The notes: generated by a model from the letters alone, not told the origin. Positions 3,336 through 21,448 are shown, counted from the first letter of the stretch. The stretch: 64,000 nucleotides of DNA from Clostridiaceae bacterium (GCA_012520615.1 JAAYNX010000054.1:245-64244), one strand, 5' to 3'. Numbers and translations are program-made.

Positions 3336-5732
3336 TTAACGTCTCTGGGCGTCAAAGCTTTTTTCAAGATTTTTAAGGATTCGATCCATGGCTACATTTA
3401 CATCCTCATCCTTTAAGGTTCTGTCCAGAGCTCTGAAAGATAAGGCAAAGGCCACACTTTTCATTCCTTCGGGAACTTGGGCTCCTTTGTAGACATCGAA
3501 GATACTGACCTCTTCCAAGTATTCTCCGCCCTTTTGCTTAATTACCTCTATTATCTGGGCAACGTACAGTTCGTCCTTGACCACAATAGCCAAATCTCGG
3601 GTGATTGCAGGGAATTTAGGCAACTGACTGTATTGCTTTTCAGTAGTAGAAGCTTCAATTAATACATTTGTATCTGCCACAGCCACATAGGTTCTGCTTG
3701 GACATTCATAGTTTTCAGCGACTTCAGGATGAATCTCTCCCAAGGTGGCTGCATATACCATTTCCTTATTTTTCCCTTTAACATAAAGCTTAGCCGTGCG
3801 CCCGGGGTGGAAGCTTGCCTCATCTTTTTCAGGTCTGAATTCGTATTGCTTGATGCCCATAGCCAATAGAAGCTCTTCCATTGCGCCTTTCAGCTCATAA
3901 AAATTACTCGTTCCGCCATACATCCCAATGGTCAATGTTCCTCTTTCATCTGCCAGAACCTCCCCTTCTATGGGTAAATAAACATAAGAGAGTTCAAAAA
4001 GCGCAGCCTCGGGATTATTACGGTTGTAATTTATCGAAAGCGATTTTAGCATATCAGGTAGTGTAGTTGTTCTCATAAGGCTGAAATCTTCTCCGAGAGG
4101 ATTTGAAATAACAACTGCATTACGAAGATGATGATCCTTAGGAAGATTAATTGTATCAAAGACCTTGGGGCTTGCAAAAGATAGGGTATAAGCCTCATAT
4201 AATCCGCAGGCGACCATGGTATTCCTGATTACATCCTCCATGCTTTGTTTGTATGTTTTCCTGCCCTGCATTGATTCCTTACCTGATAAAAGGCTGGACT
4301 TGATATTGTTATATCCGTAAAATCTAGCGATTTCCTCACATAAATCAGCCAATTCAACAATATCGTTACGGAATGACGGAGGAATTAATGTCATATTCTT
4401 TTCATCTACTTCAAATTCCAAAGATTTGAAGATTTTTACCATTTGGGCAGTTTCTATTTCAGAACCCAAGAAGCTATTTATTCTCTCAGGCTGAAATTTC
4501 ATAATCCGCTTTTCATATGGCATACGATTGCAATCGGCTATACCCTTTACCACTTTTCCGGCACCTAAGAGCTCAATAAGTTCAGCACAGCGATTTAAAG
4601 CAGGTATTGCATTTTCGATATCCAACCCTTTTTCAAAGCGAATGGAAGCCTCGCTTCGAAGGCCCATTTTTTTGCCCGTTATACGAACTGAGGAACCCTT
4701 GAAAGTAGCTGATTCAAGTAAGATAGTATTGGTTTTATCAGTTATCTCTGAGTTCTCTCCTCCCATAACTCCGGCAACACCAATAGGGCGGTTCTCATCA
4801 CATATCAAAAGCATATCTGAATCAAGATCTCTGTCCTGCCCGTCCAAGGTCCTGATAGTTTCACCATCTTTCGGTGTTCGTACTACAATCCTGCGCCCTT
4901 GAACCTGCTCAAGATCAAAAGCATGCATTGGTTGGCCGTATTCAAGCATTACATAGTTTGTGATATCAACAATATTATTGATAGGCCTCATTCCAGCCGC
5001 AGCAAGTCTTCTTTGCATCCATGCCGGAGAGGGCTCGATTTTTACATCTTTTACAGCCCTTGCAGCATATCTGTAGCAAAGTTCAGGGTTTTCGATTTCT
5101 ATGGAGACTAGGTCGTTAATATCACCGCCGGCTTCTTCCTTAACCTCCACTTTTGGAATTTTAAATGTTTCACCAAGAGTAGCTGCGGTTTCCCTCGCCA
5201 AGCCTATGATAGAAAGACAGTCCGGTCTGTTTGATGTAATTTCAAATTCTACTACCTTGTCTAGATTCAAAACATCCTTAACATCTGCTCCTAATTCCGG
5301 CGTACCGCTAAATACATATACTCCGTGATCAGGTGCATCAGGAAGGTAGTCCTTAGTAAGATTGAGTTCGTCAATAGAGCACATCATTCCGTAGCTTTCG
5401 ACTCCACGCAGTTTTGAAAGCTTTATTTCACCGCCGGGCAACTTTGCTCCGACAAGTGCAAGGGGAATGTAATCTCCTTCTTTAACATTAGGAGCTCCTG
5501 TAACTATTTGCAAAACTTCGCTACCGATATCAACCTTGCAAATGCGCAATTTATCAGCATCAGGGTGGCTTTCTATAGCAACAATTTTACCTACTACTAC
5601 TATCTCAATGTCCTTCCCCAGGTCCTCTACGCCTTCAACCTTAGAGCCGGAAAGGGTCATTGCATCGGTATACTCTTTTATAGGAACATTTATCTTAACA
5701 AAATCACTTAACCATTTTATAGGTGCCTTCAT
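3336..5732 (-). CDS. pheT: Phenylalanine--tRNA ligase beta subunit
   Basis: 798-aa ORF with the typical PheT layout (N-terminal tRNA-binding domain, B3/4, B5, C-terminal FDX-ACB). Immediately downstream of pheS. Confidence 0.95.
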   Translation of the reverse strand: MKAPIKWLSDFVKINVPIKEYTDAMTLSGSKVEGVEDLGKDIEIVVVGKIVAIESHPDADKLRICKVDIGSEVLQIVTGAPNVKEGDYIPLALVGAKLPGGEIKLSKLRGVESYGMMCSIDELNLTKDYLPDAPDHGVYVFSGTPELGADVKDVLNLDKVVEFEITSNRPDCLSIIGLARETAATLGETFKIPKVEVKEEAGGDINDLVSIEIENPELCYRYAARAVKDVKIEPSPAWMQRRLAAAGMRPINNIVDITNYVMLEYGQPMHAFDLEQVQGRRIVVRTPKDGETIRTLDGQDRDLDSDMLLICDENRPIGVAGVMGGENSEITDKTNTILLESATFKGSSVRITGKKMGLRSEASIRFEKGLDIENAIPALNRCAELIELLGAGKVVKGIADCNRMPYEKRIMKFQPERINSFLGSEIETAQMVKIFKSLEFEVDEKNMTLIPPSFRNDIVELADLCEEIARFYGYNNIKSSLLSGKESMQGRKTYKQSMEDVIRNTMVACGLYEAYTLSFASPKVFDTINLPKDHHLRNAVVISNPLGEDFSLMRTTTLPDMLKSLSINYNRNNPEAALFELSYVYLPIEGEVLADERGTLTIGMYGGTSNFYELKGAMEELLLAMGIKQYEFRPEKDEASFHPGRTAKLYVKGKNKEMVYAATLGEIHPEVAENYECPSRTYVAVADTNVLIEASTTEKQYSQLPKFPAITRDLAIVVKDELYVAQIIEVIKQKGGEYLEEVSIFDVYKGAQVPEGMKSVAFALSFRALDRTLKDEDVNVAMDRILKNLEKSFDAQRR

Positions 5733-5746
5733 TTCTCTCTCCTCCT

Positions 5747-6766
5747 TTAAAACTGCTTCAGGAAACGAATATCGTTTTCGAACAGCAATCTCATGTCATC
5801 AATACCGAACTTACCCATTGTAATACGCTCAATGCCCATACCAAAGGCAAAACCTGAGTATATATCAGGGTCTATTCCGCATTCTCTTAGCACATTAGGA
5901 TGAACCATTCCGGCTCCCAGAATCTCGACCCAGCCTTCACCTTTACATATTCTGCATCCTGAGCCTCCACAGCCCCAGCAGGATACGTCTACTTCCGCTG
6001 ACGGTTCAGTGAATGGGAAGTGATGTGGTCTTAAACGAATTCTAGTATCCTTTCCGAATATGGATTTAGCAAAAGCCTGCAGAGTTCCATTAAGATCCCC
6101 CATAGTAACGCCTTTATCAACAACAAGGCCTTCCACCTGATGAAAAACAGGAGAATGAGTGGCATCTACGGCATCAGATCTGTAAACACGGCCGGGGCAA
6201 ATAATTCTTATTGGCGGTTTATTATTCTGCATATGCCTGATTTGTACCGGTGATGTATGGGTTCTCAAAACCACATTCTCACTTATATAAAAGGTATCCT
6301 GAGTATCTCTTGCCGGATGATTTTTGGGAATGTTCAGAGCTTCAAAGTTATTGTAATCCAGCTCAATTTCCGGGCCTTCGGCAATCTCATATCCCATACC
6401 CAGAAAAATATCCTTTAACTCGTCCAGTACCAATGTCAGAGGATGCTTCCTCCCGATTGCCCTGATTTTTCCGGGCATGGTAACGTCAATCACTTCGCTT
6501 TTAAGCCTTTGATTCCGCTCTTCTCTAATTAAGCGCAACTTTGCGTTTGCAATATTTTCTTCAAGGGTAGCTCTGACATCATTAGCCATTTGCCCTACTA
6601 TAGGACGCTCTTCGGCCGACAGTGCACCCATGCCCTTTAAAATCCGTGTCAGTTCGCCCTTTTTACCGAGATAGGCTACCTTCAAATCTTCCAGCTCACG
6701 AATATCGGAGATTTGAGCGAGTTTATCCATCGCTTGCTTTTTAATTGCTTCCAATTGTTGTTTCAT
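5747..6766 (-). CDS. pheS: Phenylalanine--tRNA ligase alpha subunit
   Basis: 339-aa ORF with class II synthetase core ([20 protein letters not shown]). Preceded by a T-box leader. Confidence 0.95.
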
Positions 6767-6922: not shown

Positions 6923-7182
6923 TAAAAAAAACGCCCTGTCATAGGACAAAGCGTCAGCTTGCGGTACCACCTATGTTCATGTAAGCATTAAAAATATGCC
7001 TAGCATGCACTTATACGCTGTAACGGGCTTACCCGGCCGTTCCTACTATTGTTTCAGACAGCAGCTCCGGAGGGAAATTCAGCCTGTTGCTTTCAAATTG
7101 ATGCTTTCAACCTGTGGCATCAACTCTCTTTTTGAAGAGGCAAAAGCTTACTTAAACTCTTTCATCGCAAATATTTTGTTAT
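6923..7182 (-). promoter_or_regulatory. T-box leader (Phe) controlling pheST
   Basis: The minus-strand leader carries GCGAUGA near the 5' end, AGAGAG, the F-box-like CCGUUA and the T-box core AUAGGUGGUACCGC (GGTGGTACCGC = 6961..6971). Next comes the terminator ACGCUUUGUC-CUAU-GACAGGGCGU plus U8. Candidate specifier lies within GAAUUUCC (7073..7080); UUU and UUC both encode Phe. The exact specifier register was not resolved by eye. Confidence 0.85.
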
Positions 7183-8139: not shown

Positions 8140-8240
8140 AATTTGCTCCTTAAAACATACAGTTTTTCTAATACTGTATGTGATTTTGTAAATATATTGC
8201 TTTAGATAATGAAATTCTAAATAAAGATATTAGATAAATC

Positions 8241-8661
8241 TGAGCAGACCTGTAAGCCGGGTTCTGTCTTGAATGATCATCTATCTACGCCTGGTATTGC
8301 TACAAGGCTTTAGCCACCTCTAAGAAACAGGCGGGCAGCCTATATGTTTCTTATCACGGTGTTGCTCCAGGTGGGGTTTACATAGCACCCTCCGTCGCCG
8401 TGGGGTCGGTGAGCTCTTACCTCGCCTTTCCATCCTTACCGTTCTAGAGGTTAGATGCGAGAAGTGGGATGTAAGAATTTAAGTTTATATTTAATCCTAC
8501 TACTTCCAACATCTAACCTCTAGAAAGGCGGTTTATTTCTGTTGCACTTTCCTTAAAGTCACCTTCACCGGGTATTACCCGGCACCTTTGCCCTGTGGAG
8601 CCCGGACTTTCCTCGTACGAGGCTTTTCAGCACATCGTCCGCGACCATCCGGCCTACTCAT
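8241..8661 (-). ncRNA. rnpB: RNase P RNA, bacterial type A
   Basis: Minus strand contains GAGGAAAGUCCGGGCUCCACAGGGCA, GUGCAACAGAAAUAAACCGCC, GGUAAGAGCUCACC, AAACCCCACCUGGAGCAA and ACAGAACCCGGCUUACAG. A P1 pairing forms between UGAGUAGGCC (5') and GGUCUGCUCA (3'). Ends are approximate (+/-10 nt). Confidence 0.9.
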
Positions 8662-10927: not shown

Positions 10928-11038
10928 AAAGATGATGTCTTAAAACAAGACGGTTATTTTGTTAAAGATTATTCACTTCTAAGGCTACTAATTATATGTA
11001 TGCGAATATCTGACCAATTCAGCTTTAGAGGTGATGTC

Positions 11039-12478
11039 ATGGCGGAAGCAGACAACCACAGTGTGAAAAACCTTCTTGTTTCTTTCATTTCTCTGCTTCA
11101 TTCAAAAGATAATATCAATATCAGAAACGTACGGTTAAATCGCATTAAATACATGTTGATCTTTCCTTTAGCACCCGTTTTTGCAAATATGCAGGGCACT
11201 TTGTTCAGCGACTCAATCCGGCTTTTCGGGCTCGATGCAATGACGCTTATGGGCAGTGCTTATTGTCTAGGAGCTGGAATGTTGTTTGCTCTAGCCAAAG
11301 TGAAAAACCTGGCAGTGACTACCCGCATATTTGCCTCTTTTACGGCAGTTACTTATATTCCGTGGTTATTTATACCCGAAAGCCCATTGAGTCTGCTTCT
11401 GGCAATCCTGTTTATGTTCGGTCTGGGGGGGTGTGCCGCATGCGCAGCTTTTTCATACACCTTTGCGCTTAACAATACGGAACGGCTTCTTGGTGCCGCG
11501 GCGATTTCGTTTTTCTTTGCGCTGAATCAAATTGACTCCGGTCTATCCCTTATATCCGGATTTTTTAATAGATTCTATTTGACGTCGCTTGTTGCAGGCA
11601 CCTGCATCTGCCTTTTCCTTTATAATACAAACGATTATTCGGAAGTTGAGAGAAGGCCAAAAGCAAAGCTCAATTCCGCTCTCAAGCTAATGTTGTATTT
11701 CTTCATCGCCCATTATTTTGTCGAAATATTTTACACTTATCTGCCGGGTGCATCTATGCCCGACGCTATGGTGGCAAACGGGGCAGTGGGCGTTTTGGTA
11801 GTTGTTCTTACGGTTGCTTTACAGTTTATCACCAAACGAAGTGTCTGGAATATGTGCAACCTGTTTTTCTTGGCTATGATTTGTACCTACATACTTTATT
11901 TTTCACCCGAAGACTCTCTCTTCAGGTATGCTGCCCGTTACATACATGGTTTTGAGCAGATGGGCTATATCGCGGCATATTACCTGCTTGGCTGTGTGTT
12001 CAAAAAACACGGAGATTTTTATACATTCAAGCTGTGCGTTGTTACAATCCTGCCATCCAGCGTGCTGTCATATATAATTCCGGGTATATTCTCGGCTTAC
12101 GCGCCCGATTTGCTGCCTCACGCGGCGACAATCACCTCCGGTATTATTTTTATCATATTTATACTTTTATCTCCTGCCTATTCAAAACATTTGTTTTTTG
12201 CCGAATGGGCTGATGATTTTTACTGTGCCGATATGTCGGAAGCCCCCGATGAGGCGGAAGAATCTAATATGCTGGAGGGACTGGGGCTGTCACCCCGCGA
12301 AAAAGAAATAGCCGCACTGCTTCTTTGTGGGCATTCGGCTAAACAGATTGCCGAAAAACTTGGAATCACAACCAATACAGCAAATTTTCATATTAAGAAT
12401 CTGTATAAAAAGCTTAATATCGGCAGTCGTTCAGAGCTGTTTGCACGATTCGGCACCCTGCCCCGCCGGACTGTGTGA
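11039..12478 (+). CDS. Membrane-embedded LuxR/GerE-family transcriptional regulator (~12 predicted TM helices + C-terminal HTH)
   Basis: C-terminus LSPREKEIAALLLCGHSAKQIAEKLGITTNTANFHIKNLYKKLNIGSRSELFARF is a LuxR-type HTH. The preceding ~400 aa are a run of hydrophobic helices. Start at ATG 11039 (GAGGTGA upstream); the track start is 11000. Confidence 0.8.
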   Translation: MAEADNHSVKNLLVSFISLLHSKDNINIRNVRLNRIKYMLIFPLAPVFANMQGTLFSDSIRLFGLDAMTLMGSAYCLGAGMLFALAKVKNLAVTTRIFASFTAVTYIPWLFIPESPLSLLLAILFMFGLGGCAACAAFSYTFALNNTERLLGAAAISFFFALNQIDSGLSLISGFFNRFYLTSLVAGTCICLFLYNTNDYSEVERRPKAKLNSALKLMLYFFIAHYFVEIFYTYLPGASMPDAMVANGAVGVLVVVLTVALQFITKRSVWNMCNLFFLAMICTYILYFSPEDSLFRYAARYIHGFEQMGYIAAYYLLGCVFKKHGDFYTFKLCVVTILPSSVLSYIIPGIFSAYAPDLLPHAATITSGIIFIIFILLSPAYSKHLFFAEWADDFYCADMSEAPDEAEESNMLEGLGLSPREKEIAALLLCGHSAKQIAEKLGITTNTANFHIKNLYKKLNIGSRSELFARFGTLPRRTV

Positions 12479-12767: not shown

Positions 12768-15700
12768 TTATGCCGACTTCCAATCAATGCTTGTGTCAAA
12801 GCTTGCGTTGACCGATCCTTCGACCTCGAAGAGCCATAGATCAAGGCTGTAGGATACCGTACACGAGCAGGCCAGCGACCAGCAATCGAAAGGATATGCC
12901 GAACCTATCTTACCTCTTGCATCCAGATAAAAACTGATGATATTGAACTTTTTGGAGCCAACCTTGATGCCCCCCTCAATTCCGCCCTTTAGATAGAGCT
13001 CCAAAGTGAAGGAGTTGTCTGCAAAGTAATAGGCACCGTCAGCCCCCGCATAAAGATAACCGCGCAGATAAACAATGAAGACCTCAACGCTCTTATCCAA
13101 CCCCAGCTCCATCTTAGCCTGAACCATGGAGTCCCCGCCTTCATCGATGCGGAAACCAACTCCCATACCCAGATGGAAGATACCTATGTTTCCTACCAGC
13201 GTTTCCGGGTATCCAAGATAAACTCCGAACAGGCGGGGACTATATTCAAATCCAAGGCTGCCGCCAACCTCAGCCAGTAGCAGATTAATCCTGTCCAAGG
13301 TCATACTGAAAGAAAAGTAACGATCAGGATGGCTGTACCTTATGGCAGCGGAGCCCACCTTTGTGAAGCCTCCGTCTCCCTCAATCACCGAGCTGATGCT
13401 TAGCGGAAGATAAAGGCTGCCGCTGGCACTCACCGAGGGGCCGCGCTCAAAGCCAAAATACAGGTCACGTATCTCGCAGAGCCTTGAAACTTCAAGAGTT
13501 CCTCTTATTCCCGCAGCGAAGGTTGAATCGCTGCCTTGATGCACATGAAGATTTTCAATAAATCCTTTCATATGACCGGCCTGATTGGGGAACTCAAACC
13601 GTTGCTGCTCATCTCGTGAGATTTCCATGTTATAGGTGACCATGCCCGTAAAGTTACGTACCTCACCGGCACCCAGCGATATTTTTCCTCCCTGGCTGCC
13701 GGGAACCAGTCCGACCGCGAAGTAACACCTGTCGTTTTGCTCATCATATCCAAAGCGGGTTTCTGCTTTAATTGGCATACCTTTTAGCTGCTGTAAAAAG
13801 TTGAAATTCAGCTCCTTGGTATCGAATTCAACAAGTCCTCCGGCATTCTGTACCTTCTTAGGCACCAAAACCCCGGAAACGTCCACACAACCGTCAAAGG
13901 ATGTTTCAAGGACCGAAAGGGATTCATCGTATATAACTTTCGGATTGCCCAAAACAGCGGGGCACTCTATAATCAGCTGATCGGTAGTGTCACTTGAAAG
14001 AGCTATAATGTCTGAGAGTAGTGTCGCACCGTACAGATTCATTCTGACTGCTCCCGATTCCCTGTGTACAAGCTCAAACCTTCGTATCTCCATGGGAAAA
14101 CCTTCAAAGTCAATATTTACAGGTCTGGTCAGAAAAGCAGTTGTATATTTACGTCCCAGCGCATCTGTTTTATTACCTGCCAGAGTTTTATCAGCCGGGA
14201 TGACCATATCCGAGAAAGCTAGGATTTCTGCCGATGAAATGCCCGCAACCGGTGCGTCACGCTCGGGTAGCTTAAGTCCTCCGCTGATGTGCAAACCGTC
14301 TTCCTTAAAGAATCCACCATCTATTTTTATGTCGATATCATTCGCCAGAGCATCTTCAATCATTGTCGGAGCCACAGAACATAGAAATGCTCCCTTCTTT
14401 CCGTCTTCATTATCCTCCTTATTTGTATACAACTTGACTTTCAACCAATTATTCTGTAACAGATCAACCCTAGCCTCTGCGTTGATTTCAAGGTTTACAC
14501 GATTTGCATACAGGTCAAGCAGACAGTCGTAAACAATCACCTCATTAAAGCCCCCCAATTTTTCTCCAAAGTCGGCGGGGACTCCTTCGGTGTTATAGAG
14601 ATAGGTTTGATAGTTGAAGCCGTTTAAATCGTATATCATCTCGCCCTCGGCAAGTTTAAAATCAATAGCTCCGCCTCCGTCACGCTGGATAAAATCGGGA
14701 GGCAACTTAAGGGTACCGCTCTTAATTATAAGCCCTACCCAGAACGGCTTTTCAGTTTCATTGGGAGTCTGGGAGCCGCCCTGTTTGGGTAAGAATCCCT
14801 CCCTGTCAAGATCAACAGTTACACCGGTTGGAGCCACCACCATAGCTTGGGCGCGCTGGGTCGAGGTGTCGAGGCTGCGTTCTGTAATCCTTGTCGGGGA
14901 CATATGGCTGTTTTCCATTACAAAGCCCTTTCCGGTCCAATCATTAACCTCGATGGGAATCCATGAGCACTTATCCTGAAGTGAAAAGTCGTCCGGAACA
15001 ATCAGCAAACCGTTTTGCTGTACTGTTTCCCCAAACTGTATAAGCCCCGCACGCATTGCGGCTTCCAGTAAGTCCGTCAGATTGCCTGCCGCAAGCTCAT
15101 CCATCTCATTGGTTTTTGGGTGGCCCCCCACATATGTCGCGGGGACATCCTCTCCCGTAACACCTTCCTGCTCAAAGGGAAGCACCATTTTCCCTGATAA
15201 ATATCCTCCTGAAAGAACCTCTCCGTCTACAAACACCAGAGCGGCAAAATCCACCCGAAGTGCGGCTCCGCCCGGCGCAAGAAGCTGCAGGCTTTGTTCT
15301 TTGTCTACCATAATACTTCCGCTCATTCTGCCTTGTAAGTCGAATTTTAGGTTAGTTGCCGGAATAAATTCCAACCCCTCGTTATTCAATGTTTCAAGGT
15401 GTGATTTCATTATGACTTTACCGCCTACCAGCGTGATAAGATCCTTTGCATTTAATTGTTTCCCATTGAGCCGTATCCAGATCTCCCGGTGATTTTGAAG
15501 AATAAACTGCTCATACCGGATTACAGGCAGTTTCTTATCCACTATAATATTCCCAACCTGAAGCTCAGCATCTTCAAACTCAAGAGCATACATATCTCCA
15601 ACCAGATTTCGATTAAACGTACTCTTTATATAACCGCTCACTTCAGCTCTGCCCATATGGGGAGCAACAGCCAGACTCACAAGCTTCACCCCGATGCTTG

Positions 15701-18700
15701 GCAGTTCAACAGGCGCCGTTATATAGGCATACCCGCGGTACATAGTATCGTAATTGCTCCCCTTTGTAATCTCGGCTTCATCAATTACCACCGGAATCGT
15801 GGTTTCATAACCGATATCCAGCTTGGCCGTACCTGAATATCTTTGAGAATTCACGGGTTTTTTCAGTTTAACTTCGGTAAGCCTAAAGTTCATGCAATAC
15901 ACCAAATCTGAATTAAACTCCTCATATCCGGACACAGCCGGGGGGGCTACATACGGAACAGGCGACTGGGAAGCTGTAGAAGCCGCAGTCAGCATAGGTG
16001 ACTGATCAGCCGAAACACTCAAAGCCTTTAAATCTCCTCCATTATACGCCAGACCAAGGGGATCTAATGGCACAGTTGTTTCTTTTGGTTTTTCAGGTGT
16101 ATTGGGCGTGGACAGGGAGGTAACATTAAGGCTTATTTCCTTTGAATCGGTGCCATAAGAATTGGTAACCCGAACTACAAAGCGGTATTTACCCGGATCA
16201 ATAAACTTGCTTACCGTTAATAGCCCTGAGCTGTCGATACTAGCCTGGGAAGGAACATTCATTCGTGGCGACACCGGCTCAAGGCACCAAGACAGGGGCT
16301 TTGTACCGGTGGCATTAAGCTTTACTTTTAAGTCTTTACTTCGGGTAATCATTTTAAAGCTGTATTGGTCGCTGCGCTCATCCAGTTTCGGTACTTCACC
16401 AACCTCCAGTTTGCGGGATACCTTAAGCGTAAAGGAATCTGTATGCTCACCAAAGTCATTCTTAGCTTTTAAGGTTACAGTATAAACTCCTGCTTTGAGG
16501 GATGAATCCGAAATAAACTTTCTTGCTCCTTTATCGATGGAAAATTCTTTTATCGAATTTCCCGTAGCATCTTTTACTGATGCGGATACAGTGATTGGCA
16601 CGGTGCCTGTAAGTTCATATTGTACACTGTATGAAATACCTTCAAAGGTATTAAATTCTTTTTCTGCAACCGTAATCTTTGGCGCGGTTCCGGCAGGTTC
16701 GGGCAGGTCTTCAGGAATCTCTATTTCAGGGGGATCCATTTCCGGAATCTCAGGAGTTTCACTTTCCAAAGGATCCTCAGGAATTTGATTTTCCAAGGGA
16801 TCATCAGGGATTTGATTCTCTACTGGGTTCACGGGAATAATAGTCTTTAGATCAGACACGAATGGCAGACTAACCATAATAGGCTCAGAGAATTCTGAAA
16901 GATAGCCTCCGGTGTCAAGAACTTTTACTTTGTACCAGTTAAATGCGAATATGTCGGCCTCAGTATCCTTCCATTTGGGTTCAAAAAGCAGCGGGCTTGC
17001 CTGATAGTATGTCCCGTCTTTTTTGTCCGATCTATACACAATATAACCCACAGTATCGGCCAGACACTGATCCGGTGTCAGGGGAGACATTCTGGCTAAG
17101 TTCCATGAGAGATGGGGTACATTATCAACAATCTCGCCGGTTAATCCGTCTATGGGATCGAACGGACGGTTCCTGCGTGGAGTTGCCTCCACAGGCTCAG
17201 GCCGTGAAGAACCAAGATTGTCGTCGTTCCATGCTTGCACCGTGTACAGATATTTCACGCCATATCTGGCAGTTGTATCAATTATGGACAGCGGTTTTAA
17301 AAGCCCTGTGGCTGGATCAACTGCTTCGGTGGTATCCTCATCGGCAGACAGCTCTCCAACCTTTGTCCAGACTATCTTTCCCAGCATTCTTTCGCTTAAG
17401 TCCTTATAATCGGCAAGCGCCAGAGGACCAAATCTATCCAGTATCTGATTATACGCATCAAGAGCGCTCTGTTTTCCAAGAGAAGCAATGTTTTCTGTTA
17501 TAGAGGAGGATTTTGCGAAAGGAATGGTCTTAAATCTGCTAACCGGCAGAATACCGGCACCCTGTGCAGCCGTAGCCGGTAGGGAGCCTGGATTCAACGA
17601 TTTTTCCAGTATTCCGGTCATAAACACATCTGCCTGGGATGGCGGCTCAAATAAGCCCGAAAGAACTTCGGGGTTATCGTTAAGCATTTCAAAATAAACT
17701 TTATCGCTTATAACGGGTATTGCGGCTCGGTAAATCTCGTACCTATCGCAATGGCTGACAGCTGAAAAATTGATTTGCACACCATCCTTGCGTGAGAGGG
17801 GCAGTAATAGATTGGGAGTTTCAGGTGGTTTGGTGGATGGAACCCGGAAGCGCTGCACCCGTCCAACCGCTGATTCCACTCCCCACAGGGAAACCGATGT
17901 TACTTTATAGTAATAGTAATGGGCAAAGGACTGCTCAACCCGCTCTGTATATTTGGGAATCTTCAAATTATCACCAACCAGTGTCCATTCAAGGGTCGAT
18001 TCATCAATAGGCTTTTTAAAAGAGGATACCTCACTGCGGTAGATACGGTAATAGTCAACCTGGGGATCATCGGGAATTTCCCAGTTAACATAGACATATC
18101 CGCCTTCGGGAGCATCGGGGATACCCTCCGCACCGATGAATGCATTGGCATATTCCAGATACGGGTTTTCCATGGTGGAAAGTTCATAAGAAAAAGTAAT
18201 TTCCGGCTCAAGGCAGACTAAGAAGAGAGAGAGTCTTCCCGGCTCGTTGGAAAGGCCTCCTACTACCATTTGATTCTGGGTTACAGCCGACTCGTTCACC
18301 CGTCTCCATCTGCCCATCCTCAAAAGCTCGGTACGGGACATGTTCTGCATTTCCTCCAAAGGCTCAGGCTCAAACAAAGGCCTGTAAATAACATATCCTC
18401 CTAACCCTTCGCCGTTGTATACCGGCCATTTAAGGCGTGCGGTGCCATCAGGCAGTACATCCTCGCCACGGACAGCAAGTAACATGTGTATATAGCGGTC
18501 GTCAGGCAAATTGCCGTAACTCTCGTCAAGAATCTTGGACGCAACCGACCCGGCAATAAGGAAATTTCCTATTTGCGCCCCCTCATTTTTTGCGTTGATA
18601 AGTGTATCAGGGTATGCCCCGGCCGGGCATGGCCTTGTGGGAATATTCGCCGTGGCTGAGGCATCAAGATCGGCGTAAGTAATAATGTCAGGTTGAATAA

Positions 18701-21146
18701 TCCCCGGATGAGTTCCCGAATAATCCGGCAGCGTGTTGGGGTGCATGGAAATGGAAAGCTCATCGGGAATCCCCGGCTCGACAGTGGTAGGAACAGCCAT
18801 CGTGGCTGACTGGGACCAAACGCTCTCGTTATTCCATGAGTCCCAAGCTGAAACCCAATATTTATAGGTACAGCCTTCTTCCACATCAATATCAAAATAT
18901 GCAAGATCGGGATGAGCAAGGCTGAACTCTGAAAGCAAAAGATGGTTGCTCTTTTTACGCTTAATCTTTTTGTACACTGGTTCTTCAGTAGCATAGGAAA
19001 TCTCAGGAGCTTGCTCGATTACCATTCCCGTGCCGCCTATGTTTTCTGCTTGTTCCTCTTGAGGCGGTTCAGGATTGCTGTAGGTAAGGTCAGCTAACAC
19101 CTCAGGCTTCCCAAACGGTTTGGCTCCCACAGCAACTGCTCGGTATATGGTAAAGCGTACGGTATCAGGTGAATCTGTATAGATTGGCAGCACTATTCCC
19201 CGTTTACCGGAGTTTGCACTTATTACCTGCTGTACTGCAGGTGACGGATCTACTGCATTGTCCGAACGTATGGGAGTGTCTATTGAGGGCGAGTTGGGCG
19301 GGGTTACTTTTTCTACTTTGAAGGTTATGGGGTCGGAATATTCGCTCATCCGTCCAAAAACGTCCAGAGAGCGTATACGGTATGTGGCTGTTCGCCCGTT
19401 ATCAACCGTATCCTCAAAAAACACAGGAGATTCAAAGAAGATATCAGTTTCGTCAAGTATGTATGAAACAGCTACCGGCTCATCGTTTATCTGTTTGAAT
19501 TCGTTCTCACCATCAAGCTTTCGCTCGATAAGGTATCCGCTCAGTATGCTTTTTTCCTCCGGGGTCTGGGCTTGCGTCCAACGCAGCGGCACCTTTCCAT
19601 CCAGGCCATAACCCATCAACCCTTCAGGTTTGGTCAGTTTATTTTCAATTCCTTTTGTAATGGAAAGAGATGATCTCCCTCCTTCCGGTGTCAAGACCTC
19701 ATATTTTATTTCGGTTCCATTAGGAAGGTTCAGTGAAGATAGATCATCCCGCAGCAAAAATCCTGCCTCTTTTGCAAACTCATCATCAACAAAGCTGAGA
19801 GTTGCCAGCTGCTGTCTTGCAACAAGAATAGAGTTAGCAAGCTCAAATTTTTCCGCTCCGCCCGGCTGAATCCCAATTTGGCTGATGCCGGTTATTGGTC
19901 TTGCTTGTCTGACAGAGAATCTTTCGAGAACAGACATACTTATTCCAGAGCTTAAGCCGGTTCCGTTCTGCCCGCCGGTTACATATATAGGCTGGCTCAG
20001 CATAAGGTCAACATAAGGAATTTTCTGTTCCATACTTGCGGGAATTGTAATAAGCGCATTTTTCATTTCTATATAATCCATTTCGCCGCTTATCCTTGGC
20101 TTCTGGGTCAAGGCATCACTTCGGCAAGCAGTATTTCTGAATTCCTCGGCGGTCATTTCAAGAACAGCTAGTTTTTCGGGTGTAAGTTCGGCTTGTTTGT
20201 AGAGGGCTTGTATCAAATCAGCATCGGACAGCGATAATTTTCCTGCCAGTGCTTGCATAGGTGAAGCCTGTTCCTGGGATATTAGCTCCCTTGCGCCATT
20301 AATCACACGATACAGCTTATAACCATTTTCAGGCAGCCAATCTCCTGAGGGAACCATATGAACAAATGTCTCGTCGGGTGATTGCCAGACGCCTTTCATA
20401 TTTATTGAGGCCGGAAACGAAACAAGGCGGTCATAGTCATATTCTTTAGGTGCAAGCAGACGCGATGTGGCATTTTTCAGTTCTGATATAGTCGCCTTCT
20501 GTTCTTCCAGAAGAATTTGCGGTACTGCATGTTCTCCTGTCACCTGAACGGCTACGCTTTTTGGAGGTTTTTTCACGACTTCATCCTCCGAAACACCCTC
20601 AGTATCTGAAACAACCCCGGTATTTGAAACATCATCGGTATCCGCGGTATCCTCGGTATTTGAAACATCCAAGGTATCTGAAGAAACACCGGAAGAACCG
20701 GTTTTTTCTTCCTGATTGTCCGGCACCTGACTGGCCTCTTTATCGGCAGAATCCTTAATATACTCCTGTTCTTGGTCTAACAGTACTGTTAGCTGCCGAT
20801 CCAAGCTGCGTAAACTATTTAGAGCTAGGCGGGAGTCTACAATGTCGGTGAGTTTTTTCGTATTTATCAGTTCTTTAGCAATCTCAGAATTTTTTAGCAG
20901 CACATCTACACTGGGAGAGTCGCTGTGAATAAGAGCCTCCAGTGTCTGAGGCTCTGACTCGGTTTCAGCTAGGATATATGACCTATCCGGTAAGTAAGAG
21001 AAGGCTTCTCTTGTAAATCCCCCACTAGCCCATAAAATGCCTGTTATGATAACAGCCAAACCAGAAAGAGTAATAACGAGGGAGAGAACCGGTTGCGTGC
21101 GAAATTGTGTAAATACCCAACGAGCAATATTTTTAATGATTTTCAT
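12768..21146 (-). CDS. Giant (2,792 aa) membrane-anchored surface protein: N-terminal TM helix, acidic repeat, ~7 FN3-like modules, Pro/Glu linker, 2 Ig-like modules, ~1,100-aa beta-rich C-terminal region of unknown family
   Basis: Single uninterrupted ORF with RBS CAGGAGATGG 6 nt before ATG 21146. Domain calls come from recurring sequence signatures in the translation (see findings). Function unknown. Confidence 0.85.
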   Translation of the reverse strand: MKIIKNIARWVFTQFRTQPVLSLVITLSGLAVIITGILWASGGFTREAFSYLPDRSYILAETESEPQTLEALIHSDSPSVDVLLKNSEIAKELINTKKLTDIVDSRLALNSLRSLDRQLTVLLDQEQEYIKDSADKEASQVPDNQEEKTGSSGVSSDTLDVSNTEDTADTDDVSNTGVVSDTEGVSEDEVVKKPPKSVAVQVTGEHAVPQILLEEQKATISELKNATSRLLAPKEYDYDRLVSFPASINMKGVWQSPDETFVHMVPSGDWLPENGYKLYRVINGARELISQEQASPMQALAGKLSLSDADLIQALYKQAELTPEKLAVLEMTAEEFRNTACRSDALTQKPRISGEMDYIEMKNALITIPASMEQKIPYVDLMLSQPIYVTGGQNGTGLSSGISMSVLERFSVRQARPITGISQIGIQPGGAEKFELANSILVARQQLATLSFVDDEFAKEAGFLLRDDLSSLNLPNGTEIKYEVLTPEGGRSSLSITKGIENKLTKPEGLMGYGLDGKVPLRWTQAQTPEEKSILSGYLIERKLDGENEFKQINDEPVAVSYILDETDIFFESPVFFEDTVDNGRTATYRIRSLDVFGRMSEYSDPITFKVEKVTPPNSPSIDTPIRSDNAVDPSPAVQQVISANSGKRGIVLPIYTDSPDTVRFTIYRAVAVGAKPFGKPEVLADLTYSNPEPPQEEQAENIGGTGMVIEQAPEISYATEEPVYKKIKRKKSNHLLLSEFSLAHPDLAYFDIDVEEGCTYKYWVSAWDSWNNESVWSQSATMAVPTTVEPGIPDELSISMHPNTLPDYSGTHPGIIQPDIITYADLDASATANIPTRPCPAGAYPDTLINAKNEGAQIGNFLIAGSVASKILDESYGNLPDDRYIHMLLAVRGEDVLPDGTARLKWPVYNGEGLGGYVIYRPLFEPEPLEEMQNMSRTELLRMGRWRRVNESAVTQNQMVVGGLSNEPGRLSLFLVCLEPEITFSYELSTMENPYLEYANAFIGAEGIPDAPEGGYVYVNWEIPDDPQVDYYRIYRSEVSSFKKPIDESTLEWTLVGDNLKIPKYTERVEQSFAHYYYYKVTSVSLWGVESAVGRVQRFRVPSTKPPETPNLLLPLSRKDGVQINFSAVSHCDRYEIYRAAIPVISDKVYFEMLNDNPEVLSGLFEPPSQADVFMTGILEKSLNPGSLPATAAQGAGILPVSRFKTIPFAKSSSITENIASLGKQSALDAYNQILDRFGPLALADYKDLSERMLGKIVWTKVGELSADEDTTEAVDPATGLLKPLSIIDTTARYGVKYLYTVQAWNDDNLGSSRPEPVEATPRRNRPFDPIDGLTGEIVDNVPHLSWNLARMSPLTPDQCLADTVGYIVYRSDKKDGTYYQASPLLFEPKWKDTEADIFAFNWYKVKVLDTGGYLSEFSEPIMVSLPFVSDLKTIIPVNPVENQIPDDPLENQIPEDPLESETPEIPEMDPPEIEIPEDLPEPAGTAPKITVAEKEFNTFEGISYSVQYELTGTVPITVSASVKDATGNSIKEFSIDKGARKFISDSSLKAGVYTVTLKAKNDFGEHTDSFTLKVSRKLEVGEVPKLDERSDQYSFKMITRSKDLKVKLNATGTKPLSWCLEPVSPRMNVPSQASIDSSGLLTVSKFIDPGKYRFVVRVTNSYGTDSKEISLNVTSLSTPNTPEKPKETTVPLDPLGLAYNGGDLKALSVSADQSPMLTAASTASQSPVPYVAPPAVSGYEEFNSDLVYCMNFRLTEVKLKKPVNSQRYSGTAKLDIGYETTIPVVIDEAEITKGSNYDTMYRGYAYITAPVELPSIGVKLVSLAVAPHMGRAEVSGYIKSTFNRNLVGDMYALEFEDAELQVGNIIVDKKLPVIRYEQFILQNHREIWIRLNGKQLNAKDLITLVGGKVIMKSHLETLNNEGLEFIPATNLKFDLQGRMSGSIMVDKEQSLQLLAPGGAALRVDFAALVFVDGEVLSGGYLSGKMVLPFEQEGVTGEDVPATYVGGHPKTNEMDELAAGNLTDLLEAAMRAGLIQFGETVQQNGLLIVPDDFSLQDKCSWIPIEVNDWTGKGFVMENSHMSPTRITERSLDTSTQRAQAMVVAPTGVTVDLDREGFLPKQGGSQTPNETEKPFWVGLIIKSGTLKLPPDFIQRDGGGAIDFKLAEGEMIYDLNGFNYQTYLYNTEGVPADFGEKLGGFNEVIVYDCLLDLYANRVNLEINAEARVDLLQNNWLKVKLYTNKEDNEDGKKGAFLCSVAPTMIEDALANDIDIKIDGGFFKEDGLHISGGLKLPERDAPVAGISSAEILAFSDMVIPADKTLAGNKTDALGRKYTTAFLTRPVNIDFEGFPMEIRRFELVHRESGAVRMNLYGATLLSDIIALSSDTTDQLIIECPAVLGNPKVIYDESLSVLETSFDGCVDVSGVLVPKKVQNAGGLVEFDTKELNFNFLQQLKGMPIKAETRFGYDEQNDRCYFAVGLVPGSQGGKISLGAGEVRNFTGMVTYNMEISRDEQQRFEFPNQAGHMKGFIENLHVHQGSDSTFAAGIRGTLEVSRLCEIRDLYFGFERGPSVSASGSLYLPLSISSVIEGDGGFTKVGSAAIRYSHPDRYFSFSMTLDRINLLLAEVGGSLGFEYSPRLFGVYLGYPETLVGNIGIFHLGMGVGFRIDEGGDSMVQAKMELGLDKSVEVFIVYLRGYLYAGADGAYYFADNSFTLELYLKGGIEGGIKVGSKKFNIISFYLDARGKIGSAYPFDCWSLACSCTVSYSLDLWLFEVEGSVNASFDTSIDWKSA

Positions 21147-21403
21147 GCTTTACCATCTCCTGTTTATGTTTAGTTTATAATGTTAAACGAATCACTCTTA
21201 TTAAAAATTTTCTTCGTTCTCATGGCAACACTTCCTGACTAATCCAATTTTACATATTAAGAATCAAATTTAGGTAGCTACTAAAATTGGTAGGGGGCAA
21301 AAATCATCCTAAGGGTCAATCCTTTATAAAGCCATCAAAAGACTGTAGGATAACTATTTTAAGCGATTAATAGGATGCAGGATTGAAAGAAAAGCATAAA
21401 TAT

Positions 21404-21448
21404 AAAAGGGCTGTTTCAAAACCCAAAATGGTTCTGAAACAGCCCTTT
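21404..21448 (-). terminator. Intrinsic terminator after rnj
   Basis: GGGCTGTTTCA / TGAAACAGCCC 11-bp stem. A T-run follows on the minus strand (AAAAGGG on plus), 13 nt past the rnj stop. Confidence 0.8.

Follow-up and report, generated by a model that had tools for sequence, protein, structure and literature searches.

A giant protein of uncultured Clostridia with a predicted N-terminal tether, an FN3-like stalk and an orphan C-terminal beta domain

Described stalked adhesins and the giant gene

Fibrillar adhesins are recognised by large size, a rod-like repeat region, an anchor and a distal functional region (PMC9210967). We analysed a 64,000-nucleotide stretch of a Clostridiaceae bacterium (GCA_012520615.1 JAAYNX010000054.1:245-64244), here called the window, which carries on its minus strand an open reading frame (ORF) for a giant protein of 2,792 residues. 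Like the fibrillar adhesins and the Periscope proteins (SasG/Aap, Sgo_0707; PMC9210967, PMC8201768), this protein is huge, is predicted to be exported and appears to project a distal domain on a rod of Ig- and fibronectin type III (FN3)-like modules, and its stalk-module number likewise differs between relatives. Compared trait by trait with the fibrillar adhesins, it has the length; the rod-like Ig/FN3 stalk is recovered by AlphaFold2 (AF2) models, Foldseek and the Pfam matches of homologues, with its own modules below the Pfam thresholds; and the predicted anchor is a single hydrophobic helix with a basic tail, replaced in some relatives by a lipobox or another transmembrane (TM) helix. Neither Pfam nor NCBIfam finds a known adhesive domain in it. 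The polarity is reversed with respect to the fibrillar adhesins, with a predicted N-terminal TM anchor, a C-terminal head and no LPXTG motif; moreover, the seven FN3-type stalk modules are fixed, conserved and furnished with helical inserts. The near-identical tandem domains that vary between strains in Periscope proteins are absent, no domain-length DNA repeats being found in the ORF by Tandem Repeats Finder (TRF); here variation is confined to how many divergent PKD/Ig modules there are, and it is seen only between distant lineages. The protein also lacks the motif and the C-terminal hydrophobic segment of LPXTG sortase-anchored proteins.

In Gram-negative bacteria, LapA, MpIBP and SiiE combine N-terminal retention with a long Ig-like extender and C-terminal distal functional modules, and RTX/LapA-type adhesins are often tied to cyclic di-GMP (c-di-GMP) signalling. 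The giant protein would share this polarity, and GGDEF-EAL genes lie upstream of its gene in three lineages. Unlike the RTX/LapA-type adhesins, however, it has no Pfam matches for RTX repeats or a type I secretion signal, its host belongs to the Clostridia, and its TM helix would sit in the cytoplasmic membrane instead of forming a plug in an outer-membrane channel.

We propose, with moderate confidence, that the giant protein is an exported, N-terminally tethered stalk-and-head surface protein of fibrillar-adhesin-like type, with regulated expression and a novel distal head. A protein of ~300 kDa (estimated from 2,792 residues) would be exported and held in the cytoplasmic membrane by a signal-anchor, with the N terminus inside and the C terminus outside, as the positive-inside rule suggests. 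Proceeding outward, a juxtamembrane segment, an acidic spacer, seven beta-sandwiches, a Pro/Glu hinge, PKD/Ig modules in lineage-variable number and the beta head would follow one another. With ~3.5 nm for each of the seven sandwiches and ~4 nm for each of the two Ig modules, plus linkers, the stalk would reach several tens of nm and could span the Gram-positive wall and hold the C-terminal head outside it. In that position the head would bind a putative conserved partner, be it a substrate particle, the matrix or another cell; the binding of a target or ligand at the surface is the most likely, if putative, function. Expression would not be constitutive, the adjacent membrane LuxR protein most likely activating the gene at a conserved inverted repeat by the promoter. 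Such a protein would represent a sortase-independent, N-terminally tethered route to a long Gram-positive surface appendage, and a head that does bind substrate particles or partner cells would be relevant to how flocs and biofilms form and to syntrophic contact in digesters. The overall design holds no strong surprise; the protein is a well-defined and conserved example of protein 'dark matter', with a candidate regulatory partner.

The gene and its translation start were delimited as follows.

12768..21146, minus strand: complete ORF of the giant protein, ATG start, 2,792 residues plus stop (ORF list, translation)
21157..21161, minus strand: ribosome-binding site AGGAG, 10 nt 5' of the giant-gene ATG (read from the sequence)

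An earlier note, made by a model from the sequence alone, had described one uninterrupted minus-strand ORF with a good ribosome-binding site and had named a pseudogene or an assembly artefact as what would overturn its account. Both the frame and the site are as described, and the remaining ORFs listed within 12768-21146 are short shadow frames. A run of 2,792 codons without a stop at 47% GC is not to be expected by chance. Furthermore, a protein from a Joint Genome Institute (JGI) metagenome, P0001, is also 2,792 residues long and differs from the giant protein by 11 substitutions and 0 indels; since it derives from a second assembly, the frame is not an assembly artefact. Codon alignments with the two closest relatives (L001 and L014) gave a ratio of nonsynonymous to synonymous substitution rates (dN/dS) of 0.14 overall, with 0.13 in the FN3 block, 0.12-0.13 in the C-terminal region and a relaxed 0.27-0.40 in the acidic spacer. 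The giant gene is real and under purifying selection.

The exact product of the ORF is missing from a 15-billion-protein collection, and the products of the flanking LuxR and RNase J genes bear the consecutive accessions NLL66671.1 and NLL66672.1. Apparently the public record of this metagenome-assembled genome (MAG) holds no protein for the intact ORF, which may have been left unannotated or flagged as a pseudogene. These two facts are what could be said for regarding the ORF as a pseudogene, a chimera of the assembly or a relic without function. Against them stand the unbroken frame, the independent assembly of the same length, the full-length relatives in many lineages and a dN/dS of ~0.14 in each conserved segment, so that this explanation is effectively refuted and retains next to no probability.

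In metagenomes, 55 giant-gene loci were collected, falling into 36 lineages, with relatives of 2,350-3,540 residues. Every named relative belongs to a MAG of uncultured Clostridia, Lachnospiraceae or 'Firmicutes', and the samples, where named, are digester, bioreactor or sludge. Dozens of uncultured Clostridia lineages, mostly from anaerobic digesters and bioreactors, maintain this ~8.4 kb of coding capacity under purifying selection, and no description of this giant-protein family was found in the literature. Curated Pfam and NCBIfam models above threshold cover zero residues of the protein, which lies outside the LPXTG, fn3 (at profile level), AsmA/TamB and outer-membrane barrel families. 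A single-sequence search of genome contigs returned one true relative, L001. The second match, L002, an Edaphobacter Wza-like exporter, was spurious and shares the chance peptide FVMENSHM.

Tether, stalk and C-terminal domain

The segments of the giant protein, from the N to the C terminus, are listed below.

21090..21146, minus strand: basic tail, residues 1-19, predicted to be cytoplasmic; net charge +4 over residues 1-40; conserved motif W-x3-QFRT
21027..21089, minus strand: single hydrophobic helix, residues 20-40, read as a signal-anchor (Kyte-Doolittle, family N-termini)
20787..21026, minus strand: conserved juxtamembrane segment, residues 41-120, motif YLPDRxYIL (column identity 59-65%)
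20532..20786, minus strand: variable acidic S/T/D spacer, residues 121-205, with an 18-nt tandem repeat at 20590-20682
16827..20531, minus strand: seven FN3-type beta-sandwiches, residues 206-1440 (AF2, Foldseek, column identity up to 85%)
Inserts within the FN3 block: residues ~296-461 and 1148-1255, helical; further inserts near residues 690-745 and 800-880 (AF2)
16707..16826, minus strand: Pro/Glu linker, residues 1441-1480, with a 27-nt repeat at 16750-16817
16077..16706, minus strand: two PKD/Ig-like modules, residues 1481-1690 (sub-threshold Pfam, homologues, length variation)
15927..16076, minus strand: variable Pro/Ser/Ala-rich linker, residues 1691-1740 (conservation, composition)
12771..15926, minus strand: family-specific, non-repetitive all-beta C-domain, residues 1741-2792, 1,052 residues (conservation, AF2)

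The single N-terminal hydrophobic helix of the earlier note is borne out by hydropathy: in a Kyte-Doolittle profile (19-residue window), the only strong peak spans residues 17-43, with a maximum of 2.51, next to an N-terminal tail of net charge +4. One isolated window at residue 1955, in the beta-rich C-domain, barely passes the 1.6 threshold (1.68). At the same position, distant members of the family carry a TM anchor, a lipobox (LSGC, LAGC) or a plain signal peptide; export thus appears to be universal in the family and N-terminal tethering the rule, with exceptions. No LPXTG motif occurs near the C terminus of the giant protein or of 10 relatives, hydropathy reveals no C-terminal hydrophobic segment in the giant protein, and its whole length has no Pfam match for SLH, dockerin or choline-binding modules, in agreement with the earlier note.

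Five residues of the juxtamembrane motif YLPDRxYIL (L52, P53, R55, Y57 and L59) are at least 90% conserved across the family. The motif occupies residues 51-59 (20970-20996, minus strand), and the lipobox-type member P0050 has LPDRPYIID; it could be a processing or partner-binding site. The acidic spacer that follows contains 22 D+E against 6 K+R in residues 121-205 and 5.2 copies of an 18-nt unit at 20590-20682 (TRF), just as an acidic S/T/D tandem repeat had been described there.

Conservation was profiled in a family alignment of 30 full-length relatives. Residues 41-120, 206-1440 and 1741-2792 are conserved and residues 121-205, 1441-1480 and 1691-1740 are variable, while residues 1481-1690 are moderately conserved, with length differences. 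The AF2 model of residues 241-1440 has a low mean pLDDT of 58.7, with 70-83 in the sandwich modules, and shows seven beta-sandwiches; a helical insert of ~165 residues interrupts the first, and another bears one of ~110 residues, also helical. In Foldseek, this model matched tandem FN3/Ig arrays with a probability of 1.00, including the titin/MyBP-C thick filament (E 3.6e-20) and, also at a probability of 1.00, gp130, LAR and fibronectin FN3 7-10. On the other hand, Pfam fn3 (PF00041) had no match in the giant protein even at E <= 1, a PDB sequence search with the profile of the N-terminal block had no match, and hhalign of six of the modules with the canonical fn3 repeats of the distant member P0092 gave non-significant probabilities of at most 17%. 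Bona fide Pfam fn3 domains do occur in distant members: P0092 (E 1.7e-67) has no Ig segment and has six extra canonical fn3 modules at its N-terminal side. 'FN3' is here best taken as a fold-level label, not as Pfam membership. The earlier count of about seven FN3-like modules with insertions therefore stands in number, fold and inserts, as far as the models go, but not as Pfam fn3.

Two weak resemblances of the protein were discarded. A match to the tail-fibre J family phrog_31 (E 0.027) falls on an FN3-type stretch, and weak Foldseek matches to TEP1/A2M do not indicate thioester or alpha-2-macroglobulin kinship, as there is no A2M-family Pfam match and the invariant motif is CLEP, not CxEQ.

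The linker at residues 1441-1480, described earlier as Pro/Glu, is 25% Pro with 15 D+E and is encoded in part by a 27-nt unit repeated 2.5 times (TRF). Beyond it, residues 1490-1676 gave Pfam matches to PKD, He_PIG, Cadherin-like, I-set and similar families, all sub-threshold, and homologues carry precomputed PKD, He_PIG and Big_13 matches. The two Ig-like modules of ~90 residues that had been read here are thus backed by the homologues, while in the giant protein itself they stay below threshold. The segment from hinge to head measures 205-428 residues in relatives, roughly 2-4 Ig modules; both of the large blocks around it are fixed in layout.

The C-domain was modelled by AF2 from a 28-sequence alignment (residues 1701-2792; pLDDT 73, pTM 0.54). 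The model is almost purely beta, with ~65 strands in antiparallel hairpins and few helices; the strands have ~10 residues, and the last six lengthen to 11-19. They are amphipathic: hydrophobic residues make up 70% of one face and 35% of the other, which is also 30% charged, and the domain as a whole is acidic (net charge -45). Segment-against-segment hhalign detected no internal repeats (probability at most 3%), on which ground a solenoid of sequence repeats was rejected.

No database assigned the domain to a known family. Pfam, NCBIfam, PHROGs and PADLOC gave nothing above threshold on the whole giant protein; PDB sequence searches with the single C-domain and with its profile had no match; and Pfam run on nine diverse C-domains at E <= 5 returned 13 unrelated single-member matches, none of them shared. 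Against the PDB, Foldseek listed Deinococcus SlpA, LptD, the PapC and FimD ushers, SprA and the ApoB100 beta-belt, all as local matches only (E 1e-5 to 1e-3, TM-scores 0.09-0.16, probability up to 0.92), and against BFVD only low-TM noise. An exhaustive hidden Markov model (HMM) search of 1.84 billion representative proteins with a nine-sequence profile found 123 proteins with the C-domain. All of the full-length ones are giants with the domain at their C terminus, and the remainder are fragments; stand-alone C-domain proteins were considered and dismissed, the shorter matches being fragments without signal peptides. The C-domain is thus an orphan confined to this giant-protein family. The earlier description of an unassignable, beta-rich C-terminal region holds and can be delimited to residues 1741-2792, and the confident match to a known adhesin or wall-binding family that would have changed it did not appear in the HMM, Pfam, PDB or Foldseek searches. 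Together, the seven-sandwich block with its inserts and the 1,052-residue all-beta domain are two new conserved units and possible domain families.

The membrane LuxR neighbour and the upstream region

LuxR proteins with 12 TM segments are ligand-responsive activators of neighbouring genes, as shown genetically in Eggerthella lenta (PMC9734109). The giant gene has a neighbour of similar architecture, and its upstream region contains a candidate site for it.

11000..12478, plus strand: LuxR/GerE one-component membrane regulator, 492 residues, convergent neighbour, with a helix-turn-helix (HTH) at the C terminus
21273..21291, minus strand: operator-like element ACCAATTTTAGTAGCTACC with inverted half-sites CTACCA/TGGTAG, candidate site of a LuxR-type regulator
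21240..21254, minus strand: conserved block TGTAAAATTGGATTA with an extended -10-like TGnTAAAAT, candidate giant-gene promoter
21405..21448, minus strand: intrinsic terminator at the end of the RNase J gene upstream, with a stem of 19 bp and a T-run

The neighbour matches Pfam GerE (1.9e-15) at residues 430-480 and has ~10 distinct hydrophobic segments by hydropathy, plus two weaker candidates by eye, i.e., ~10-12. In this it resembles DadR, HcdR and CadR of E. lenta (PMC9734109), which likewise join ~10-12 N-terminal hydrophobic segments to a C-terminal GerE HTH and lie beside the presumed target gene; the comparison is one of architecture. Here, however, the host belongs to the Clostridia and the adjoining gene encodes a presumed giant surface protein instead of metabolic enzymes, and several lineages add an HTH-only GerE protein of 77-102 residues. 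If the pairing is functional, it would extend membrane LuxR regulators from metabolic genes of Coriobacteriia to a surface-protein gene of Clostridia.

In an all-versus-all comparison of flanking ORFs, GerE/LuxR was the only recurrent neighbour family of the giant gene. Among the 17 informative lineages, those with flanks of 2 kb or more on each side, a large LuxR gene adjoins the giant gene in seven, and it does so in two more with partial flanks (9 overall), which upholds the link to the adjacent LuxR-type gene suspected earlier. The LuxR gene is placed in one of two ways. The window, L001 and L014 have it downstream, in convergent orientation, and contain no separate small GerE gene; L014 is syntenic with the window, and L001 has kept the LuxR gene in a different upstream context. 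In six other lineages, the LuxR gene is upstream and co-directional and is accompanied by an HTH-only GerE gene of 77-102 residues:

L003 9747-9980: HTH-only GerE gene
L007 9651-9998: HTH-only GerE gene
L010 1581-1850: HTH-only GerE gene
L025 1843-2100: HTH-only GerE gene
L027 2431-2673: HTH-only GerE gene
L029 3813-4121: HTH-only GerE gene

Each of these small genes is flanked by the membrane LuxR gene and the giant gene, and ends 2-25 nt before the giant start. Over their full length, the LuxR orthologues are 69-83% identical in seven other lineages; L007 has, in addition, a more distant copy with 39% identity. The giant proteins of the LuxR-sharing lineages are 46-77% identical, some of them 46-52%, so the regulator is more conserved than the giant protein. 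That the LuxR protein keeps 69-83% identity where the giant protein has only 46-52% speaks for a partner that is dedicated to the giant protein and inherited with it.

Upstream of the giant gene, the inverted-repeat element ACCAWTTTTRGTAGCTACC stands ~20 nt before the extended -10-like TGTAAAAT, an arrangement common to the window, L001 and L014. The operator-like element occurs once in the window, against 0.08 occurrences expected by chance. The candidate promoter block was not called by a consensus promoter scan, and Rfam detected no c-di-GMP or other riboswitch in the 5' region of the giant gene. Given the terminator of the RNase J gene, the giant gene forms its own transcription unit.

Lineages without the LuxR gene have other genes immediately upstream, namely AraC regulators in four lineages and GGDEF-EAL proteins in three:

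L008 9023-9805: AraC-type gene
L009 8654-9514: AraC-type gene
L022 183-1196: AraC-type gene
L053 3329-4435: AraC-type gene
L009 5504-8005: GGDEF-EAL gene
L031 1-1288: GGDEF-EAL gene
L033 2006-5125: GGDEF-EAL gene

In one LuxR-less lineage, the giant gene adjoins a sortase-pilus cluster. The AraC, GGDEF-EAL and pilus contexts fit a regulated surface or biofilm factor.

Alternative readings and genomic setting

Several observations weigh against a plain fibrillar adhesin under LuxR control. The AF2 models are just moderate (C-domain, pLDDT 73) or poor (FN3 block, 58.7), Pfam and NCBIfam place no known adhesive domain in the head, and the LuxR neighbour is missing from half of the informative lineages. 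Because the number of FN3-type modules stays at seven and their inserts are conserved, the FN3 block does more than act as a passive spacer. Conservation is highest, and dN/dS low, in the head and the FN3 block, whereas the tips of many adhesins evolve fast; such conservation would also suit an enzyme or a part of a machine. Finally, P0092 and P0123 have an ordinary cleavable signal peptide and hence no N-terminal anchor, and in the giant protein, too, signal peptidase may cleave the N-terminal segment.

This last point leads to an unlikely arrangement, in which the N-terminal segment would be a long signal peptide that is cleaved off, the C-domain a new attachment module for wall, S-layer or membrane, and the FN3 block the exposed functional part. 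P0092, P0123 and P0088 keep the C-domain with ordinary signal peptides and no TM anchor, and the giant protein itself has an Ala at a possible -1 position (LWA/SG), a conserved n-region motif that resembles long Gram-positive signal peptides and no other wall-binding module. Yet its hydrophobic core of 21 residues is long for a signal-peptide h-region, the residue following LWA varies (C/S/A/F), the conserved juxtamembrane segment begins directly after the helix, and the lipobox of other members is again an N-terminal tether; moreover, the C-domain matches no SLH, CWB, LysM or GW module. With the head left at the distal end of a tethered stalk, it might still be a surface-displayed enzyme or another non-adhesive module, acting for instance on polysaccharide or wall material and simply positioned by the stalk. 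We regard this as rather unlikely, as no catalytic family appears in Pfam or NCBIfam at permissive thresholds, the PDB has no match, Foldseek yields no enzyme fold, and carbohydrate-active genes do not recur in the neighbourhood. What speaks for it is the strong conservation of the head (dN/dS 0.12-0.13), its many invariant polar and aromatic residues (motifs HP.TNEMD and YSHPDRYF) and, from general knowledge of lifestyles, the polymer degraders among the host order Acetivibrionales.

The remaining alternatives turn on the long antiparallel meander of the C-domain model. The earlier note had been reminded of beta-solenoid or AsmA/TamB-like beta-taco proteins, and neither impression was supported: the predicted hairpins of ~10-19 residues are antiparallel, not parallel, and without internal repeats, no AsmA/TamB-type Pfam match arose at E <= 5 in nine members, and the HMM search found relatives only within the family. 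The likeness to AsmA/TamB consists in an N-terminal TM helix and a long predicted antiparallel, amphipathic beta-sheet region, but no profile matches (E <= 1 on the whole protein, E <= 5 on the nine C-domains), there is no convincing fold match, and the TM helix (residues 20-40) is followed by ~1,700 residues of other segments (spacer, FN3 modules, Ig modules) before the beta region begins (1741 onward). An AsmA/TamB-like taco, or another amphipathic trough that binds or transfers lipids or hydrophobic compounds coming, for instance, from another cell or particle, would account for the meander, for strand faces that are 70% and 35% hydrophobic, and for the presence of two lipid-handling sheets, LptD and the ApoB100 beta-belt, among the weak Foldseek matches. 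It is nonetheless distinctly unlikely: AsmA, TamB and DUF490-type profiles are absent at E <= 5 in the nine members, the exhaustive search reaches no relative beyond the family, TM-scores are just 0.09-0.16, repeating units are lacking, and the domain is not placed directly behind the TM helix. Amphipathic strands are equally expected in ordinary beta-sandwiches, and a Clostridia host, presumably monoderm, would have no second membrane to bridge. The best Foldseek matches are large outer-membrane barrels (SlpA, LptD, PapC/FimD, SprA; probability up to 0.92), and the final six strands are very long (11-19 residues), as would suit a membrane-inserting barrel or pore that is brought to a target cell for contact-dependent attack or fusion, or that inserts into an outer-membrane-like layer. 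We consider this very unlikely, because the TM-scores of 0.09-0.16, by query or target length, denote local 3Di resemblance, with a best value of 0.16 where ~0.5 is needed for superposition; in addition, the domain is highly charged, with an acidic net value of -45, the head is conserved instead of polymorphic, no immunity-like gene recurs downstream, and an outer membrane is not expected in the host. An improbable but far-reaching variant, hinted at by the weak matches to LptD, ApoB100 and outer-membrane barrels, is that the C-domain is a new fold class, a huge amphipathic antiparallel sheet (barrel, taco or belt) on a stalk tens of nm long, which would grip or insert into the membrane of a partner or prey, or a hydrophobic substrate, and be switched by the LuxR sensor. 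If true, it would be a contact organelle without precedent in Gram-positive bacteria.

The host MAG is labelled Clostridiaceae/Acetivibrionales (Bacillota; Clostridia). Clostridia are typically monoderm, and no outer-membrane biogenesis gene turned up among the window ORFs that were domain-scanned (~1/3 of the large ORFs). The window is ordinary chromosome, with pheST, RNase P RNA, metA, a comEA-like gene, dacA, RNase J, the CCA-adding enzyme, fba, coaE, polA, murT and an [FeFe]-hydrogenase. Two RNA elements were located in it.

8237-8660, minus strand: RNase P RNA, bacterial class A (282 bits)
6939-7174, minus strand: T-box leader (105 bits), upstream of pheS/pheT (5747-6766, 3336-5732)

No relatives of the giant protein were found in IMG/VR viral contigs or PLSDB plasmids, and therefore no phage or plasmid origin is evident. 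In some lineages, genes for a transposase and a phage-type integrase, or for serine recombinases, are found at most a few kb from the giant gene (L003 3300-6833, L010 18727-20639), which is compatible with mobility of the giant-gene module. The GC content of the giant gene is above that of its flanks (0.47 against 0.39; third-position GC, 0.45 against 0.36), and the third-position excess is found in nearly all lineages, for example 0.71 against 0.43 in L025. This excess hints at horizontal spread or a separate codon regime of the giant gene.

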